This document shows, one piece after another, positions 4,562 through 62,670 of a DNA stretch of 64,000 nucleotides. Both the position numbers and the translations under genes were made by a program. Location of the stretch: assembly GCA_951406725.2 (NCBI GenBank), contig OX597815.1, positions 212,040,001 through 212,104,000 on the forward strand, given 5' to 3'. The stretch's first letter is position 1, and every line of letters begins with the position of its first letter. The notes beneath the pieces are model-generated. The model was not told the origin of the DNA. It saw only the letters and a list, made by a program, of their open reading frames with translations, and did no database searches. Source of the DNA: Octopus vulgaris. Its lineage: Eukaryota.

Positions 4562-4794
4562 TTGAGACAATAATTCGACAAATTTATATATCCTGCCTTC
4601 AGTCTCACAGCGATCCCTCACGCTCGAGTACCTTCGAACCAGAAAGATCACTTGGATGCGCCATGCATGATCTCTAAAACTGCCGAATTATTGTGTTACC
4701 ACATCATGAAACTATTAGTAGTTATCTCATTGAATTGAGTACATTTCTTGTTGATCCTACAAGCAACAGAACAGTAAGCTATGCATACAGGCAT

Positions 4795-6092
4795 GCATGC
4801 ATCCATCCATCTATACATACGTACATACATTCATTCATACATACATACATACATACATGCATACATGCAAACATGCACACATGCATACATACATACATAC
4901 ATACGTACGTACGTACATACATACATACATACATACATACGTACGTACGTACATACATACATACATACATACATACATACATACATACATGCATACATAC
5001 GTACGTACGTACGTACATACATACATACATACATACATACATACATACATACATTCATACATCTATACATACATACGTACATACAAACATACATACATAC
5101 GTACATACATACATAGATACATACATACATACATACATACGTACATACATACATACGTACATACAAACATACATACATACGTACATACCTACATACATAC
5201 ATACATACATACATACATACATACATCATACATACATACATACGTACATACAAACATACATACATACGTACATACATACATTCATTCATTCATACATACA
5301 TACATACATACATACATACATACATAAACTCATACATACATTCATTCATACATACATACATACATACATACATACAAACATACATACATACGTACATACA
5401 TACATTCATTCATACATACATACATACATACATTCATTCATACATACATACGTACATACATACATTCATTCATACATACATACATACATACATACATACA
5501 TACATACATACATACATACATACATACATACATACATACATACGTACATACAAACATACATACATACGTACATACCTACATACATACATACGTACATACA
5601 TACATACATACATACATACATACGTACATACAAACATACATACATACATACATACATACATACATACATACATACATACATACATACATACGTACATACA
5701 AACATACATACATACGTACATACATACATTCATTCATACATACATACATACATACATACATACATACATTCATTCATACATTCATTCATACATACATACA
5801 TACATACATACATACAAACATACATACATACGTACATACATACATTCATTCATACATACATACATACATACATACGTACGTACATACATACATACATACA
5901 TACATACATACATACATACATACATACGTACATACATACAAACATACATACATACGTACATACCTACATACATACATACGTACATACGTACATACATACA
6001 TACATACATACATACATACATACATACGTACATACAAACATACATACATACATACATACATACATACATACATACATACATACATACATACA
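4795..6092. repeat. About 1.3-kb (TACA)n tract with TACG/AACA/TTCA variant units
   Basis: Directly visible; explains the 485-aa HTYI ORF. Confidence 0.95.
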
Positions 6093-6150
6093 TGCATCCT
6101 TGCATACAATCAATATGCGCACTCGAAGAAATACAATTAGATTGAAATAA

Positions 6151-7738: not shown

Positions 7739-8493
7739 TGTTTCTTTATTAGCCACACAGGGCTGCACACAGATAGAACAAATTACAAGGTAGAGCTTTT
7801 CTTTTGGGGGTAAAAATAAGGGAGTGGTGGTTTTCGATCAAAAGGGATCGTAAAAGGAAAGAAAGAGGACAAAAAAAAGGGAGGGGTTAATAAAAAAAAA
7901 TTTTAAAAAAGGTGGGGGGAGAGCAAAAAAAATTGATCAATAGGGATCGTTATCACAGAAATGTCAATATGAAGTGTAAAGGGGGAGAACAGGTGAGGTT
8001 TACCCGTGGAAAGAAAAGCCTATGGAAAAGACCACGGTAACCTCGGTCAATGAAGTCACATGTTATATTTCTTTTTTTTTTTTGCAAATAAGCAACTCTC
8101 TGTATTAATTTTTACGGTTCATAGAATCATAGTCAAGGTGGCTTCGTCATTCATACGTGCCATCCTTGCTACATTCACCCATCTTTTTTTAAAACATTCA
8201 CTAGACAAAACTTGCCTCTCTACTCTCACTTTCCTCTTCAAGTGATACTTGAAGAAGTTGATGAGAGATTGACCAGAGAGGAAAGTGTTTGTCTCTAATC
8301 CTTTCAGGCGCGTCCACCAGATACATTCTTTCGCCATAGCCACAAGTATGATAAAAATAGCTCTTCCTTCCCGTTTAAAGGAAGGAGGCGTGACGATATT
8401 AACGATAGACTCGGCTGATAAACCGACTCGTCCCACACGTGACAGCAGTCGTTCGACATAAGCCCACAGGTCGGAAATTGCTGGACACTGCAC
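7739..8493 (-). mobile_element. 5'-truncated Tx1/L1-like LINE inserted in (GATA)n
   Basis: ORF2 C-terminus QCPAISDLWAYVE...MAKECIWWTR...FKKRW; AATAAA at the 3' end; (GATA)n on both flanks; second copy at 45061-45704. Confidence 0.85.
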
Positions 8494-13295: not shown

Positions 13296-13950
13296 AAGGG
13301 TTTGATCCAGTAGCCATCTGGTCCCGGGGCTTTCAGTTGCTCATTTTATTTGCTGATTTCCTTCACTTCCCTAACTGAAATGACTACTTCTGCCTGTTTT
13401 GCACAGACTACTGTTTGTTTCAGTTCTTGCAACCATTCAGCATCCTTCTTGTGCTCCTTGTCTTTGCTCCAGATGTCATTCCCAAACCTTTGACTTTCAT
13501 TGTTATCTGGTATCAACTTTTCATCTGTACATTCTCCATTTCTTTCTTTATAGAATCTCTTTTGATCTACTCTGAATAACCTATCTTGGTTGTAACCCTT
13601 CATTCTTTGGTCGTATCTTACCATCTTCGCTTTCTTTGCAACGAGGCGCTGTTTCAGTTCCTCCACTACTACTTTCAGGCCTTTTCTTTCAATATTATAC
13701 TTCCTTTTCAGCGCCCTGTATTTTTGTTCGCTTTTAAGCTCCCCTTTCTCTTTTCGGTCTAACACAGAGATTTCCTTCGAGAGATTGTCTAACCCTGCTT
13801 GGATTCTTTTCCGCCATGGATCTTTTCTTTTGTCACTCCCATTATGTTTCTTTTTCTTGACATCAACACCCACCTTTTCTGCTACATCAATACTTGCTGC
13901 CTTAATCAAATTATTTGTTTCTAAGTACAACAATATTCTCCTAAACATCA
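13296..13950 (-). mobile_element. R4/Dong-like non-LTR retrotransposon fragment (pre-RT region)
   Basis: PWRKRI...EELKQRLVAKKAKMVRYDQR..NQDRLFRVDQKRFYKE...IWSKDKEHKKDAEWL...KMSN*KAPGPDGYW; abuts (TAA)n. Short second copy at 15905-16038 (+). Confidence 0.8.
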
Positions 13951-14049
13951 TTATTGGGAATACTTTAACATACATAATGCACTCCAGTACAAAAACCATG
14001 AAGATGTGACAGGAGATGGCAAAAGAGCTGATAATATTACACTGCAAAT

Positions 14050-14470
14050 AAGGCGACGAGCTGGCAGAATCGCTAGTACGCCGGGAAAAATGCTTAGCGG
14101 CATTTGGTCCGTCAGGCGTTAGCACGCCAGGCGAAATTCTAAGCGGTATTTCGTCTGCCGTTACGTTCTGAGTTCAAATTCCGCCGAGGTCGACTTTACC
14201 CTTCATCCTTTCGGAGTCGATAAATTAAGTACCAGTTACTCACTTTGGTCGATGTAATCGACTTAATCCGTTCGTCTGTACTTGTTCGTCCCCTCTGTGT
14301 TTAGCCCCTTGTGGGTAGTAAAGAAATAGGCATTTGGTCCGTCGTTACGTTCTGAGTTCAAATTCCGCCGAGGTCGACTTTGCTCTTCATACTTTCGAGG
14401 TCGATAAAATAAGTACCAGTTGAGTACTGGGGTCGATGTAACCGACTTAACTCCACCCCTAAAATTTGAA
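14050..14470 (+). mobile_element. Nested family D SINEs: tail-A copy (14114-14328) inside an older copy
   Basis: 15-bp direct repeat ggcatttggtccgtc at 14099-14113 and 14329-14343. Confidence 0.85.
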
Positions 14471-14794
14471 ATCAACATTACATTGCAAATAAAGTTCCTT
14501 TGCATCCTACACAATACACACCAAAACATCGAAATACTTCGGTAACTTGAATTACTAAGAGTAATAACTCTTCTTCAGATATCAAGTTCTTCTGTAACAC
14601 TTAACTATCATAACTACGCAGCAAATAATCTCTTGATTCCCTTCCAATCGTCAGCCTATCAAAATCCCAACAAAACCCCACTTCAGAGAACAAAATATAA
14701 ACACTTTTATAAACTTTCAAAAAACAAAAGAGAAAAATAACCCGATGAAGCTATTTTCACTAAGAAACTAAATTAGTTTCTACAACTTCAACAA

Positions 14795-15215: not shown

Positions 15216-16700
15216 TTAACATCACAAACCGCAAGACATTCACTCTACGGGTTTCCAAAACCGCATGCCGCAGGCAACAGAAGTGAAATATAACCCAAAT
15301 CGCACAAAACGAAATTGTTAATCTAATAGAAATCAAGAACAGCAGAAATACAAAACATCGTCAGGCAACTAAAGAAGAAAATAGCAAAGAAAATAAACAA
15401 ACTACGGGAAAGAAACAAAATTGGCAACCATTTGAGTCTATTATGAACTCCAAGCAATCAGTAAAATACTAAACAAAGCATCAGGAAATGAATAACGATC
15501 ATCGACAACTGGAACAGCAGCGACGTATATTAGTTTCAGATTTTGGTACCAGACCAGCAACTTCGTGGAAGCGGGTAAGTCGATTACATCGACCCCAGTG
15601 CATAATTGGTACTTATTTTATCGACACTGAAAGGATGAAAGGCGAAGTTGACCTTGGTGGAATTTGAACTCAGAACGTAGAGACAGACGAAATGCTGCTA
15701 AGCATTTTTCACGGAGTGCTAACGATTCAGCCAGCTCGCCGCCTTTGGCAGTAACACGTATATATTAAAAAATACTTGTTATGCATCCAGTAGTAAGTAA
15801 ACTCAAATATGAAATCCTTCCTGGAAATTAGTCACTAAAATCCACACAAAGAAATCAAAAACACAAACCACATGTTCTTTCCACCTAGATCAGCACCTCT
15901 TCAGACACTGAAACAGCACCTCGTTGCAAAGAAAGCAAAGATGGTAAGATGCGAACAAAGAATGAAGGGTTACCACCAAGATAGGTTATTCAGAGTAGAT
16001 CAGAAGAGATTCTACAAAGAAATAAATATAGAGTGTACAAACTGCGGCCCATGGGCCATTCTGAATGACATGCCTAATTTCAATAGGAAAGGTACCGCTT
16101 ATTAAAATTAACTTGAATTTTTATTTATTTATTTATTTATTTTTGTAGGGCTGCCCACTTGATGATGATCCATGTCTCATGCGACCAGCTTCTTGAAAAA
16201 TGTTGCCCATGCCTGATCAGCATCATCATCAGGAACCTCGCGTTCTATCAAATACCACAATAAACAATTCCATAAACCCAAAAATTTTAGGCCCCATTAA
16301 AAAATCACAATTATCTACTTACAATAAATGAACCCTAGAGTAACCATTACATTAACCAACATCTTCAGCTACTAACATCAACTCTGCTAAATCCTCGGAA
16401 ACTGGAATATGGGTGGGGGGGTGGGGGAATTATGCAAATTCTATGACCTTACAGAAACCATGCCAAAGCACCATAATATAGACCTGTTCTTATATATAAA
16501 CTCCAAAGGCCCTAGGAAAGCTCATCCTTGATACCATTAACCTGCACCTTTATATTTCGAGTATAGATTCAGAATACTACAAGCCCAAAAAGCTAGCACA
16601 GTTGATAAACACCGCTTCAGCAGGATCGACAGAAAAACAAGCAAGCTCTATTTTTCTTGTCATCGACATCAACAAAGTTTTCCACTCCGGTTATTCATCA

Positions 16701-19288: not shown

Positions 19289-19691
<403 letters not shown>

Positions 19692-45060: not shown

Positions 45061-45704
45061 CACGTGTGGGACAAGTGGGTTTATCAGCCTAGTCTATCGT
45101 CAATATTGTCACGCCTCCTTCCTTCAAACGGGAAGGAAGAGCTATTTTTATCATACTTGTGGCTATGGCGAAAGAATGTATCTGGTGGACGCGTCTGAAA
45201 GGATTAGAGACAAACACTTTCCTCTCTGGTCAATCTCTCATCAACTTCTTCAAGTATCACTTGAAAAGGAAAGTGAGAGTAGAGAGGCAAGTTTTGTCTC
45301 GAGAATGTTTCAAAAAAAGATGGATGAATTTAGCAAGGATGGCACGTATGAATGACGAAGCCACCTTGAGTATAATCCTATGAACCCGGAAAAATTTAAA
45401 ACAGAGATATACTTACTTGCAAATAAATGTGTTAACATGTGACATTAATGACCGAGGTTACCATGGTATTTTCCATAGGCTTTTCTTTCTACGGATAAAC
45501 CTTATCTGCTTCCCCCTTTACACTTTACATCATGACATTTCCGTGATACACGATCCCTATTGATCGTTTTTTTTTCCTCTTTTTACGATCCCTTTTGATC
45601 GAAAACCTACCCCCTTTTTATTTTTTTTTTCTCCCCAAAAAGAAAAGCTCTACTTTGTAATTTGCCCCTTCTGTGTTCAGCCCTGTGTGACTAATAAAGA
45701 AACA
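45061..45704 (+). mobile_element. 5'-truncated Tx1/L1-like LINE inserted in (TATC)n
   Basis: Near-identical peptide to 7739-8493; (TATC)n on both flanks. Confidence 0.85.
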
Positions 45705-45787
<83 letters not shown>

Positions 45788-54112: not shown

Positions 54113-54491
54113 ACATGGCCTGGTGATGGCATTAAGTTTAGGTCATTCGATGTTAATATTCTTTTTTTTTTTTTTGTTCTCAAAATTTATCAAGGAGTGC
54201 GTTCCTTTATCGAACATTATCATGGCTCCTTTATCAGCCATCTTTAAAAAATTGCAGAAAATTGCGAAATATTTGTTTTACCGGAAGCAGTTACAATTCA
54301 AAAAATATTTAGGCGCACCCACTGCAAAACAGGGGCTGTTTCTACGCGAAAATACTATCTGCACAATCCAGACAATCTCCGAAATGTAATGGTAAAAACA
54401 GAAATGAAAAGACGGGGGCTTAGAAAACCGAAAAGATTACAAATTCTTTATCAACTTACGGAGCACCAAATTTCTGTGACTTCACAAATAT

Positions 54492-55046
<555 letters not shown>

Positions 55047-55723: not shown

Positions 55724-56328
55724 CTATCTCTTTCTCTCAGGAGCATGGTTATATCATTTAGTAAGCAATGTAGGCTGTGTCAGTGTCTACAGATTATGCA
55801 ATGGAAATATCTCATTCCGCTGTTATGCCTGTGTAAGTATTTAGTATTCGCTGTTACAAGACATATTTTAAGCACATGATTGATTGTCCGATCAAATTGG
55901 CCACATTTTAGAGTCTTTTTAATATGTTCAAGATGTTTTTCTTGTTACTTTTAGTGTAAAGACAGCATTTGTATAGCGTTGTACTGCAACTCTCAATTCC
56001 TCTCAGTCTATTTTGGAACGTAGGCTTGTCATCCATAATTCACAATATTCTTCTTTATCTATTCTAGATCTTTATTGGGTTTCTGAACCCAGCTACTTTT
56101 ATAAATTTATTTTGTTGATATTGTTTATGCTAAGTTACGTTTTTTCATTGCTTTTGCCTTGAAATTATTGTTAAATCTACTTACCATTATTATTGTAACT
56201 TGTCCTTCTAATGCGCCCTCATCCACCGGCTTTATGACAAATAAAGAAACAATTCAATAAGCATTACTTGAGCAGTTCCATCCCACCCACCAAACACAAT
56301 TGCTGACCTTGTGCCAAAATTTGAAACC

Positions 56329-56399
<71 letters not shown>

Positions 56400-56459
56400 C
56401 ATCATCATCATCATCATCATCATTATTATTATTGATAAATGAATTAACTATTATTATTA

Positions 56460-58030
56460 TTAGAGTGTCGTAGTTGTCATGTGAAATTAGTTGAACGATA
56501 CTTCGGCATCTAGCGTTCCTTCCACAGGTTCAAAAATTACTGGTCAGTCTACTTCATTTTTTTTTTTTTTGTTTGTTAAGATTATATAGGACTGAGGTAA
56601 ACTCCTCCAGAAGTTATAGAGAAATAAATAGAATAAATGGTATAATTGGAAATTAGTATTCCACACTGACATGTTGTGCTTCAAGAAGTTTGAAATCACA
56701 GGAGAAATTTTGAAGATATCTAGCGATTTCAAGATCCATGAAATGCGGTGTACTGTCAAAGGCCTTTTTATAACCAATCCATGCGGAACTGAGATTTCTG
56801 CGTTTGTTATGACAGTTCTCAAAGATCCTGTGATTGCTTAAGAGTTGTTCTTTGCATCCATATGAGCCTCGTCGGCACCCTTTTTGCTTAGTGGGGAAAA
56901 TATCGTTCTGTTCCATAAATTTATATGTTTTCTCCACGAAGATGGATGTTAAAATTTTATACGTGGTAAATAGACATGTTATGGGCCGATAGTTTTTAGG
57001 AAATTTGGTTTCATTATTCTTCGGGAGTAGGTAAGTAATACTTCCTGCGAACCAATCAGGTGTTTTCGTAATTCATAATTTCATTGAATAACTGGACTAA
57101 TTTTTCGTATGTGCATAGGAGCGATGCGAGCCAGAAATTTGTCACCCTATCATTACCAGATTTCAACTTATGAGCGTTCGTGTCATCCTTAGGTCTGCTA
57201 TTGAGATGTCTTCCCATGCTTCTTCTGGTAAGTTATGATAGGATCCTTCTATGTGTTTAATCTAGTCTACATTTTCATCGTAGGTCATTTCATCACTCCA
57301 AATACTTTTCCAAAAGTTTTTAACTTCTTCCATAGGAATGGGGTCTTCAACGGTTATTTTCTCCTTCCCTATTTCTCTGTAGAATATTTTCGCATTGGAT
57401 GTGAACAGCTTATTTTTCTTGTAAAACTTGTTTCTCTTCTCAAATCTTCGTATTCTTTGAGCTTTTGCTTGGACATTTTGTTGCAGTGTTTATTTTGCTG
57501 AAAGCAGTTCTTCTCTTGGTGAGAATATATGTTTTCTTTCTTCTTAGGTTTGTATTTCTTCGTTCTTCTCAGAAGCATACAACCGGTTTCAATTTTCTTA
57601 GCAGCTCCGTAAATAATTTCATTTAATTCAGTGAGATCTGGTTTTCCTTCTTGTATCATTTCTTTTGTTACATGGTTTCCAATTTTAATTTGTTTTCTAT
57701 TTTGGATTGTATTTGAGAGCTTATGAAGTGATTCTCAATCATGCATATTGACGTGTCTTACAACTTCAAGATTATTCCAGATATTCTGCCTCTTTTGTAT
57801 CATAGACTCTTTATGTTCTTCAGTAAATGTGTTGTCTTTTCAAATATCGTTTCCTTACCACTTTCTTCGCTGTCTTTATCAGGTTCATTACAATCTATGT
57901 CTTCAGACGTTTGCGTGTTCTGGTCAGATGGCAATCTTTCAACTGTGACTCGTGGAGAGTTGCACTTTTCATCTGGTTCTCCATTTCCTTTCTGTCTTGA
58001 TCGCGGTTATTTCACTGTCTGTGACTCTTA
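56460..58030 (-). mobile_element. Decayed R4/Dong-like retrotransposon (N-terminal region to RT)
   Basis: KQKGCRRGSYGCKEQLL..NLSSAWIGYKKAFDSTPH; PKNYRPITCL; (TAA)n on the flanks. Confidence 0.85.
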
Positions 58031-58191: not shown

Positions 58192-58745
<554 letters not shown>

Positions 58746-61870: not shown

Positions 61871-62670
61871 AAGGCGGTGAGCTGGCAGAATCGTTAGCAT
61901 ACACGGCGAAATGCTTAGCGGTATTTCTTCTGCCGCTACGTTCTGAGTTCAAATTCCGCCGAGGTCGACTTTGCCTTTCATCCTTTCGGGGTCGATTAAG
62001 TAAGTACCAGTTACACACTGGAGTCGATAGAATCGACTTAATCCGTTTGTATGTCCTTCTTTGTCCTCTCTGTGTTTAGCCCCTTGTGGGTAGTAAAGAA
62101 ATAGGTATTTCGTCTGCCGCTACGTTCTGAGTTAAAATTCCACCGAAGTCGACTTTGCCGTTCATCCTTTCGGGGTCGATTAAATAAGTACCAGTTTCGC
62201 ACTGGGGTCGATGTAATCGACTTAATCCGTTTGTATGTCCTTGTTTGTCCTCTCTGTGTTTAGCCCCTTGTGGGTAGTAAAGAAATAGGTATTTCGTCGT
62301 CTTTATGTTCTGAGTTCAAATTTCGCTGAGGTCGACTTTACCTTTCATCGTTCCGAGGGCGATAAATTAAGTACCAGTTCCGTACTGCGGTCGATCTAAT
62401 CGATTGGCCCCCTCCCCCCAAAATTTCGGGCCTTGGGCCTATAGTAGAAAAGATTATATATCCTGGTGAGCTGGCAGAAATGTTAGCACATCGGGCGAAA
62501 TGCTTAGCGGTGTTTCGACTGTCTTTACGTTCTGAGTTCAAATTCCGCCGAGGGCGACTTTGCCTTTCATCCTTTCGGGGTCAATAAATTCAGTACCTGT
62601 TGTGTACTGGGGTCGATCTAATTGACTGGCCCCTCCCAAAAAATTTCGGGCCTTGTACCTATAGTAGAAA
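61871..62670 (+). mobile_element. Family D SINE array: three 184-bp-period units plus a downstream monomer
   Basis: Units restart at 61921, 62105 and 62289; the last unit and the monomer (about 62463-62670) carry tail B. Confidence 0.88.

Follow-up and report, generated by a model that had tools for sequence, protein, structure and literature searches.

What placed one SINE copy inside another member of its own family at positions 14099-14343 of the 64-kb stretch of Octopus vulgaris DNA analyzed here (the window), and is the point of insertion a matter of chance? The family concerned is dispersed, non-coding and of high copy number, bears target duplications at its flanks and features a single head and body that are combined with three alternative tails, A, B and C, each of which is predicted by folding to contain a short hairpin with the loop CTTGT. 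Monomers diverge from their subfamily majority by 0.044 for A (113 copies), 0.095 for B (47 copies) and 0.134 for C (28 copies), which makes subfamily A the youngest. An A-box-like TGGCAGAATCG and a B-box-like GTTCAAATTCC are present in the sequence, while ARAGORN called no tRNA and Rfam returned chance hits only and nothing relevant. The SINE presumably resembles the 66-bp Meta domain of the MetaSINE superfamily. Membership of MetaSINE or of the octopus families OK, OR1 and OR2 would be recognized by the 66-bp Meta domain or by identity with the published consensus, which is depicted in PMC4824008. The family could not be assigned to a published name.

At the nested locus, a 5'-truncated tail-A copy of 215 bp is enclosed by an exact 15-bp repeat, GGCATTTGGTCCGTC, that cannot be extended on either side, and the host sequence picks up again correctly at GTTACGTTCTGAG (Table 1), both in agreement with the original prediction. 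These are the only two exact copies of GGCATTTGGTCCGTC in the whole window, in which 10 matches at three or fewer mismatches are found as compared to 0.63 expected. The variants within the 15-mer had been regarded as private to the host copy. Four letters indeed differ from the A norm, but only that at position 8 is private to the host, while those at positions 3, 12 and 14 are majority letters of the older C subfamily. The repeat can nevertheless still be read as a duplicated target and not as part of the incoming unit, because the insert's own copy of the same site, termed T in the following, carries the A norm. The body of the insert is nearest to subfamily A (7 mismatches as opposed to 11-12 to B and C), the 3' body of the host is nearest to subfamily C (9 mismatches), and the first three letters of the insert (AGG) are not colinear with the SINE head. 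The host in turn is bordered by an older duplication of its own, in which 17 of 19 letters are alike. The insert is younger than its host.

It is conceivable that the 15-bp repeat, together with the SINE arrays treated below, arose by tandem duplication at the DNA level or by unequal crossover between SINE copies, and such routes have been put forward to explain the SINE arrays of squamates and bivalves in those parts of the publications that were accessible (PMC10702118, PMC11481361). We consider this origin very improbable. The two bodies at the nested locus belong to different subfamilies, no more than 15 bp are duplicated and the 5' join is non-homologous; the subfamily difference refutes tandem duplication for this locus, and it remains as a secondary process elsewhere. 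Nor is the left junction an assembly artefact, since a 52-nt contig of run X16 from another organism (organism D) spans positions 14087-14135 with zero differences. Contigs from five runs of other organisms (X4, X7, X16, X17 and X20) hold both flanks, break inside the SINE and in no case bridge the locus; the joints retrieved in an empty-site search of the same five runs were swamped by other SINE copies and bear neither way on an empty allele, none of which was detected in these contigs.

Decayed fragments of another LINE, which we take to be R4/Dong-like by their motifs, reside at 13346-14030 (-), 15900-16040 (+) and 55900-57700 (-), with the host SINE inside one of them; a Pfam search of the fragment at 13346-14030 gave no relevant match. 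Very long microsatellites are situated at 4784-6108, (CATA) x331, at 19289-19689, (AAT) x134, and at 58193-58745, (TAA) x169.

Table 1. Features of the nested locus, of L1-clade LINE copies and of seamless SINE arrays in the window
Feature	Position	Strand	Basis or remark
Host SINE, older target duplication, left copy	14033-14051	+	17/19 match to 14474-14492; final two letters may be the element's
Interrupted host, 5' part: putatively tRNA-like head with A-box-like motif	14052-14098	+	5-6 mismatches to every subfamily majority head
15-bp target duplication, left copy (site T, lying between the A and B boxes)	14099-14113	+	3' arm of head hairpin predicted by folding subfamily majority heads
Inserted tail-A copy, 5'-truncated head	14114-14144	+	Lacks colinearity with the head over three initial letters
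Subfamily A part of inserted copy, with its own T of the family norm (14145-14159), B box and body	14145-14263	+	7 mismatches to A
Inserted copy, tail A, homologous to 3' end of T-targeting LINE	14264-14328	+	Alignment score 65
15-bp target duplication, right copy	14329-14343	+	Exact match to left copy
Host 3' part: B box, subfamily C body, shortened C-type tail	14344-14473	+	Comparison with subfamilies
Host older duplication, right copy	14474-14492	+	17/19 match
5'-truncated relative of partner LINE, tail-A-like end, in (TATC)n	7751-8493	-	Peptide probe, tblastn
Second truncated L1-clade copy, tail-A-like end, (TATC)n	about 45061-45706	+	Flanked by TATC repeats
Seamless array that ends in an older B-type unit, after a head and two A units; same T junction	61873-62455	+
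Seamless dimer with an A unit after the head and a B-type unit at the end	54485-54875	+
Seamless array, three A-like units	1952-2545	+

A fixed site in the SINE head

Across the genome, T is followed by a second SINE head in 150 cases, as compared to 5 and 10 cases at two control sites in the body. At a second site in the head the number is 86, part of which is due to short head repeats rather than insertions. Thirty loci with a second head after T yielded 28 distinct loci that could be scored, and in 26 of these tail A ends at a duplication of T, with a length of 12-19 bp and in one case scored as 24; one of the other two ends at the second site and one has a damaged tail. Non-A letters are common to both sides of the duplication in 20 loci. 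Further cases with a visible duplication comparable to that at 14099-14343 are provided by loci L152 and L350. A survey of other nested copies for host-type duplications had been named by the original prediction as a check, and such duplications thus recur at the same position. When 237 tail-A ends, picked from search lists and thus not an unbiased share, were followed outwards, 120 ran into SINE sequence, of which T accounts for 111, the second head site for 6 and other places for 3; the other 117 were scored as non-SINE, although about 8 of these are T sites in damaged hosts. Chance insertion of SINE into SINE might be expected in so abundant a family, of which 104 kb of unpicked DNA contain 24 bodies. 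Given the contrast with the control sites, the concentration of 111 of 120 SINE-internal ends on a single base and the identical junction in the contig of run X16, we attribute next to no probability to chance or to an assembly artefact. The nested insertion into a relative at a fixed site is confirmed as a real and general phenomenon.

Some loci feature more complicated arrangements. In L121, L127, L128 and L129 a full-length A copy that again ends at T comes after the host head, T and as much as 80 bp of the body, which represents either very long duplications or template jumps, and the same two options apply to some of the body-control matches, in which tail A also ends at T with a long left part. 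Short tandem repeats built from the initial 23-28 bp of the head are present in L139 and L141-L144 as well as at G000:C15:52495166 and C30:10202942. The junction between tail A and a norm T reads GAAATA-GG-TATTTC and is thus a short inverted repeat (e.g. 14323-14336 and 62098-62111 in the window), and the empty head contains a longer inverted repeat around TTAG.

The probable partner LINE and the looser landing of the SINE

A LINE that targets T was found by tblastn with the peptide of the L1-clade relative in the window (51% identity), in the form of a 4-kb relative ending at T. The LINE tail motif occurs 210 times in the genome. Thirty of these loci comprise 13 SINE tails and 17 tails of the LINE type (15 identified by tblastn and 2 through their shared 3' UTR). 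Each of the 17 sampled LINE-type tails ends at T, two of them in a damaged host. The tail of the SINE is common to this LINE: aligned with the 3' end of the LINE, the insert's tail A scores 65, while the maximum in 300 shuffles is 41 and the scores of tails B and C are 21 and 24, respectively. Among 14 LINE copies fetched at length, the 5' end resides at the boundary between head and T or between tail A and T in 11 and was not located in 3. All nine copies of 5.0-6.0 kb carry the head variant GCGTAGC/C, which is present in 31 of 113 A monomers, and of 7 such copies whose left side has T at position 14, 5 have C in the right copy. The single head variant and this mismatch between left and right make it likely that the left SINE head is derived from the LINE RNA.

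ORF1 of the LINE contains a zf-CCHC domain (PF00098, 22.9 bits with a cut-off of 20.8), and ORF2 comprises Exo_endo_phos (PF03372, APE), RVT_1 (PF00078) and zf-RVT (PF13966). A CCHC zinc knuckle in ORF1 is a feature of the Tx1 group. The best solved relative is L1 ORF2p (E 4.5e-64; R2 1.8e-20), and an Atlas search retrieved unnamed RT clusters only. By its domains, its match to L1 ORF2p and its target, the putative partner is an L1-clade, Tx1-like LINE, in line with the Tx1 family at the same target for which the original prediction had advised to search. An RTE or Dong/R4 partner was dropped, as the tail matches an L1-clade element, and no other copy was found of a tail-C piece with about 100 bp of non-SINE sequence upstream (56196-56330, +) that had been considered as a partner 3' UTR. 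A probe search of C2:34.555-34.630 Mb, where SINE arrays are present, detected no LINE. The sampled LINE ends with GGGCAATAAAGAAATT, while most T-landing SINEs end with GGGTAGTAAAGAAATA, and given this difference in the last letters the true mobilizer of the SINE may be a sibling LINE family. Both L1-clade copies in the window have TATC repeats on both sides and belong to a young family that is also represented at L215 and L326; a further relative, L336, ends in ATC repeats.

The SINE is less strict than the LINE. Exact counts over the 2.8-Gb genome gave 78,905 tail-A ends followed by GG and 55,000 followed by A, C or T, amounting to 133,905 exact tail ends, a total that excludes ends followed by G and then non-G. 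The 8-mer GGYATTTY follows 49,123 of them, such that at most 37% of the counted ends are joined to a T-like 8-mer. Nearly all copies of a strictly site-specific retroposon reside at one site, which is not the case here, yet the share exceeds the 20% that Kojima applies to target preference, if junctions are equated with events. The original claim of a target-primed, sequence-specific insertion into relatives is thus upheld as regards the fixed site, and its specificity is strict for the LINE and loose for the SINE.

Where tail-A copies landed outside SINEs, the sites begin with GGTA(T), TATAT or AAT/AGA (AGAA), matching SINE 3' letters, and the duplications measure 10-18 bp. In about six loci the right copy of the duplication follows the letters of the element where the left does not, and the reverse holds for two (judged by eye). 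This imbalance suggests that the SINE RNA may run a few letters beyond the tail and pair with the primer, and pairing of primers with RNA 3' letters has been proposed for other LINEs in the accessible part of an earlier study (PMC6007223). In addition, a second self-target in the head, GGC/AGAAWCG(TTAG), receives tail-A copies in which AGAA comes next (L031, L032, L145, L151 and L154). Tail-A copies are also located at GGTACTGGCA or GGCATCAGCC in another repeat family (L016, L018, L026 and L015), possibly a third recurrent target.

The matching letters at non-SINE sites, the behavior of the right copies and the second self-site would all be accounted for without any sequence-specific endonuclease, if the RNA ended with GGUAUUU, e.g. 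by CpG decay of T to a T4 pol III stop, and primed at any nick that allows pairing, the SINE heads being common GGTATTT sites. In 104 kb of unpicked DNA, however, GGTATTT occurs 19 times outside SINEs and only 8 times at T (4 free and 4 occupied). As the motif is more common outside SINEs, the presence of 17 out of 17 LINE tails at T needs more than pairing of seven bases. We therefore judge it improbable that pairing acts by itself; it likely helps but does not explain the targeting by the LINE, for which we infer a putative endonuclease specificity for T.

Seamless arrays

Most SINE-in-SINE junctions are seamless, and a visible duplication is found in just 6-7 of about 190 head-bearing composites outside the picked sets. 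Where the terminal unit is of type B, it is older than the preceding A unit (0.081 vs. 0.040; higher in 58 of 66 cases). The same applies to terminal C units (0.114 vs. 0.044; higher in 44 of 47), although 40 of these 47 loci (L337-L376) were chosen visually for their diverged appearance, a selection that inflates the divergence of terminal units in this set and should leave heads and outer duplications unbiased. The divergences of terminal B and C units match those of B and C monomers, and terminal A units are not older than the A units that precede them. Terminal units that are two to three times as old as their neighbors argue against DNA-level tandem duplication as the general origin of the arrays. 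Still, A-terminal array units have more variants in common than expected (49 vs. 18 in permutations, p 0.0005), which implies that local duplication adds units.

The composites with C hosts are the most informative with regard to the joining step. The host-type letter is retained at head position 18 in 27 of the 47 (A monomers 30/113, C monomers 25/28) and at head position 35 in 15 of the 47 (A monomers 13/113, C monomers 23/28), while T is of the A type in 44 of the 47. The outer duplication is well kept in 6 of 35, as compared to 30 of 62 for A monomers (p 0.002) and 1 of 15 for C monomers. Heads that switch from host to insert letters, together with an old outer duplication, point to insertion into the resident host copy, with a crossover within the head and probably homology-guided joining. 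Earlier tests of outer-duplication decay on small samples had given no clear signal; after enlargement a signal emerged for C hosts only. In composites with a terminal B unit the heads are wholly of the insert type, with the GCGTAG variant in 16 of 66 (B monomers 1/47). Their outer duplication is well kept in 19 of 49, similar to A monomers (p 0.08 vs. B monomers).

These young heads and fairly young outer duplications of the B-terminal composites, as well as the presence of one duplication around the whole of some arrays, would also fit a different origin of the seamless arrays, though not of the other observations: a rare visible insertion would give rise to a transcript consisting of head A, tail A, T and the old 3' half of the host, which is then re-copied as a whole from the host tail. 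If so, seamless composites would not be independent events and the junction counts would greatly overstate how often the SINE targets itself. However, the 66 terminal B bodies, with 5.5 derived letters each, form 2,145 pairs, none of which shares more than three letters; this resembles permutations and means that hundreds of sources would be needed. Furthermore, head letters of the host type and old outer duplications survive in the composites with C hosts, and the nested locus at 14099-14343 is left unexplained. On balance, we regard re-copying as a less likely source of the arrays, though a possible one for those with B hosts.

Proposed mechanism and relation to known systems

In our preferred reading, which we hold with good confidence, the tail-A copy was inserted by TPRT with the enzymes of an L1-clade, Tx1-like LINE whose own sampled copies all end at the same T. 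The LINE protein would bind tail A of the SINE RNA and its endonuclease would nick the bottom strand at TTAGC/GGTATTTC, where a few letters past the tail (GGUAUUU), likely held by the SINE RNA, would pair with the primer, and the top strand would be cut 12-19 nt further on. In the usual case, cDNA containing head and T would then pair with the host head, such that part or all of the latter is overwritten and a seamless 184-bp unit results. In rare cases the join would be non-homologous and the duplication would stay visible, as at 14099-14343, and arrays would grow by local DNA duplication as well. The SINE thus appears to provide landing sites for its own copying machinery. Possible, if tentative, is an extension to a closed loop, in which the LINE would cut only in the SINE head and have its own RNA begin with such a head, subfamily A would have taken over the LINE tail and land in its own family, and each seamless insertion would replace a decayed host head with a young one. 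If this were true, old SINEs would gain a fresh promoter half and new T sites, the passenger would multiply the landing pads of its carrier, and the process could have driven SINE expansion in the octopus lineage.

Site-specific LINEs are known from rDNA, snRNA genes, microsatellites and DNA transposons, while the target of the octopus LINE is its partner SINE, which also inserts into its own kind, the junctions numbering in the tens of thousands. SINE tandem arrays would here be formed by retrotransposition and not by recombination. They offer a natural data set on 5' junctions formed by homology, because the heads of host and insert carry distinguishable letters. In genomes of this kind SINE ages and counts are confounded, as one locus can pair a young head with an old body. 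A direct assay is feasible for an APE whose target is a defined stretch of about 15 bp.

Several published systems share single traits with that of the octopus; the comparisons refer to those parts of the cited papers that were available. Priming by 3' microhomology in RTE, L2, CR1 and L1 elements is similar in that the first letters of the duplication follow the 3' letters of the element; those letters are microsatellite-like with an overlap of 1-2 bases in animals, whereas the octopus letters copy internal SINE sequence over up to 7 bases (PMC6007223). For R2 RNA co-transcribed with upstream 28S sequence, the 3' end of the cDNA can anneal to the upstream target and thereby generate a uniform 5' junction (PMC13580325; PMC4494074 citing Eickbush 2000 and Fujimoto 2004), to which the crossover inside the head of C hosts is comparable (PMC13580325). 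R2 differs by its restriction-like endonuclease and rDNA target from the octopus LINE with its L1-clade APE and dispersed SINE target. SINE arrays and satellites of bivalves and squamates likewise consist of head-to-tail units at dispersed loci and have been put down to unequal recombination (PMC11481361, PMC10702118). In the octopus arrays, in contrast, the unit boundary is the insertion site and the terminal units are older hosts.

Within the L1 clade, Tx1L targets Tx1D. Kibi, Koshi and Keno of the Tx1 group are sequence-specific elements in multicopy targets as well (PMC4494074), and the LINE relative in the window resides in (TATC)n. The targets of these four elements are microsatellites, U2 genes or a DNA transposon and not a partner SINE. 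A search of the openly accessible text of papers retrieved no report of a LINE and a SINE that target the SINE's own head. Tx1-type targeting with the passenger's own family as the target is mechanistically coherent, though not seen in these published cases. The closest one, as far as the available text extends, is that of SINEU and Tx1-Mar in crocodilians, in which a SINE and a Tx1 LINE have one target in an abundant mobile element with a duplication of about 16 bp (Kojima 2015, PMC4494074). Common to both systems are the joint target, tandem insertions and a LINE with a head derived from a small RNA, and some of the crocodilian SINE families are much less strict (23% and 13%) than others (90%). 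There, however, the target is a Mariner DNA transposon and, in the same part of the text, no LINE has the SINE's 3' end (PMC4494074), while in the octopus the target is the head of a SINE of the same family, the tail is common to SINE and LINE, and the host head is usually overwritten.
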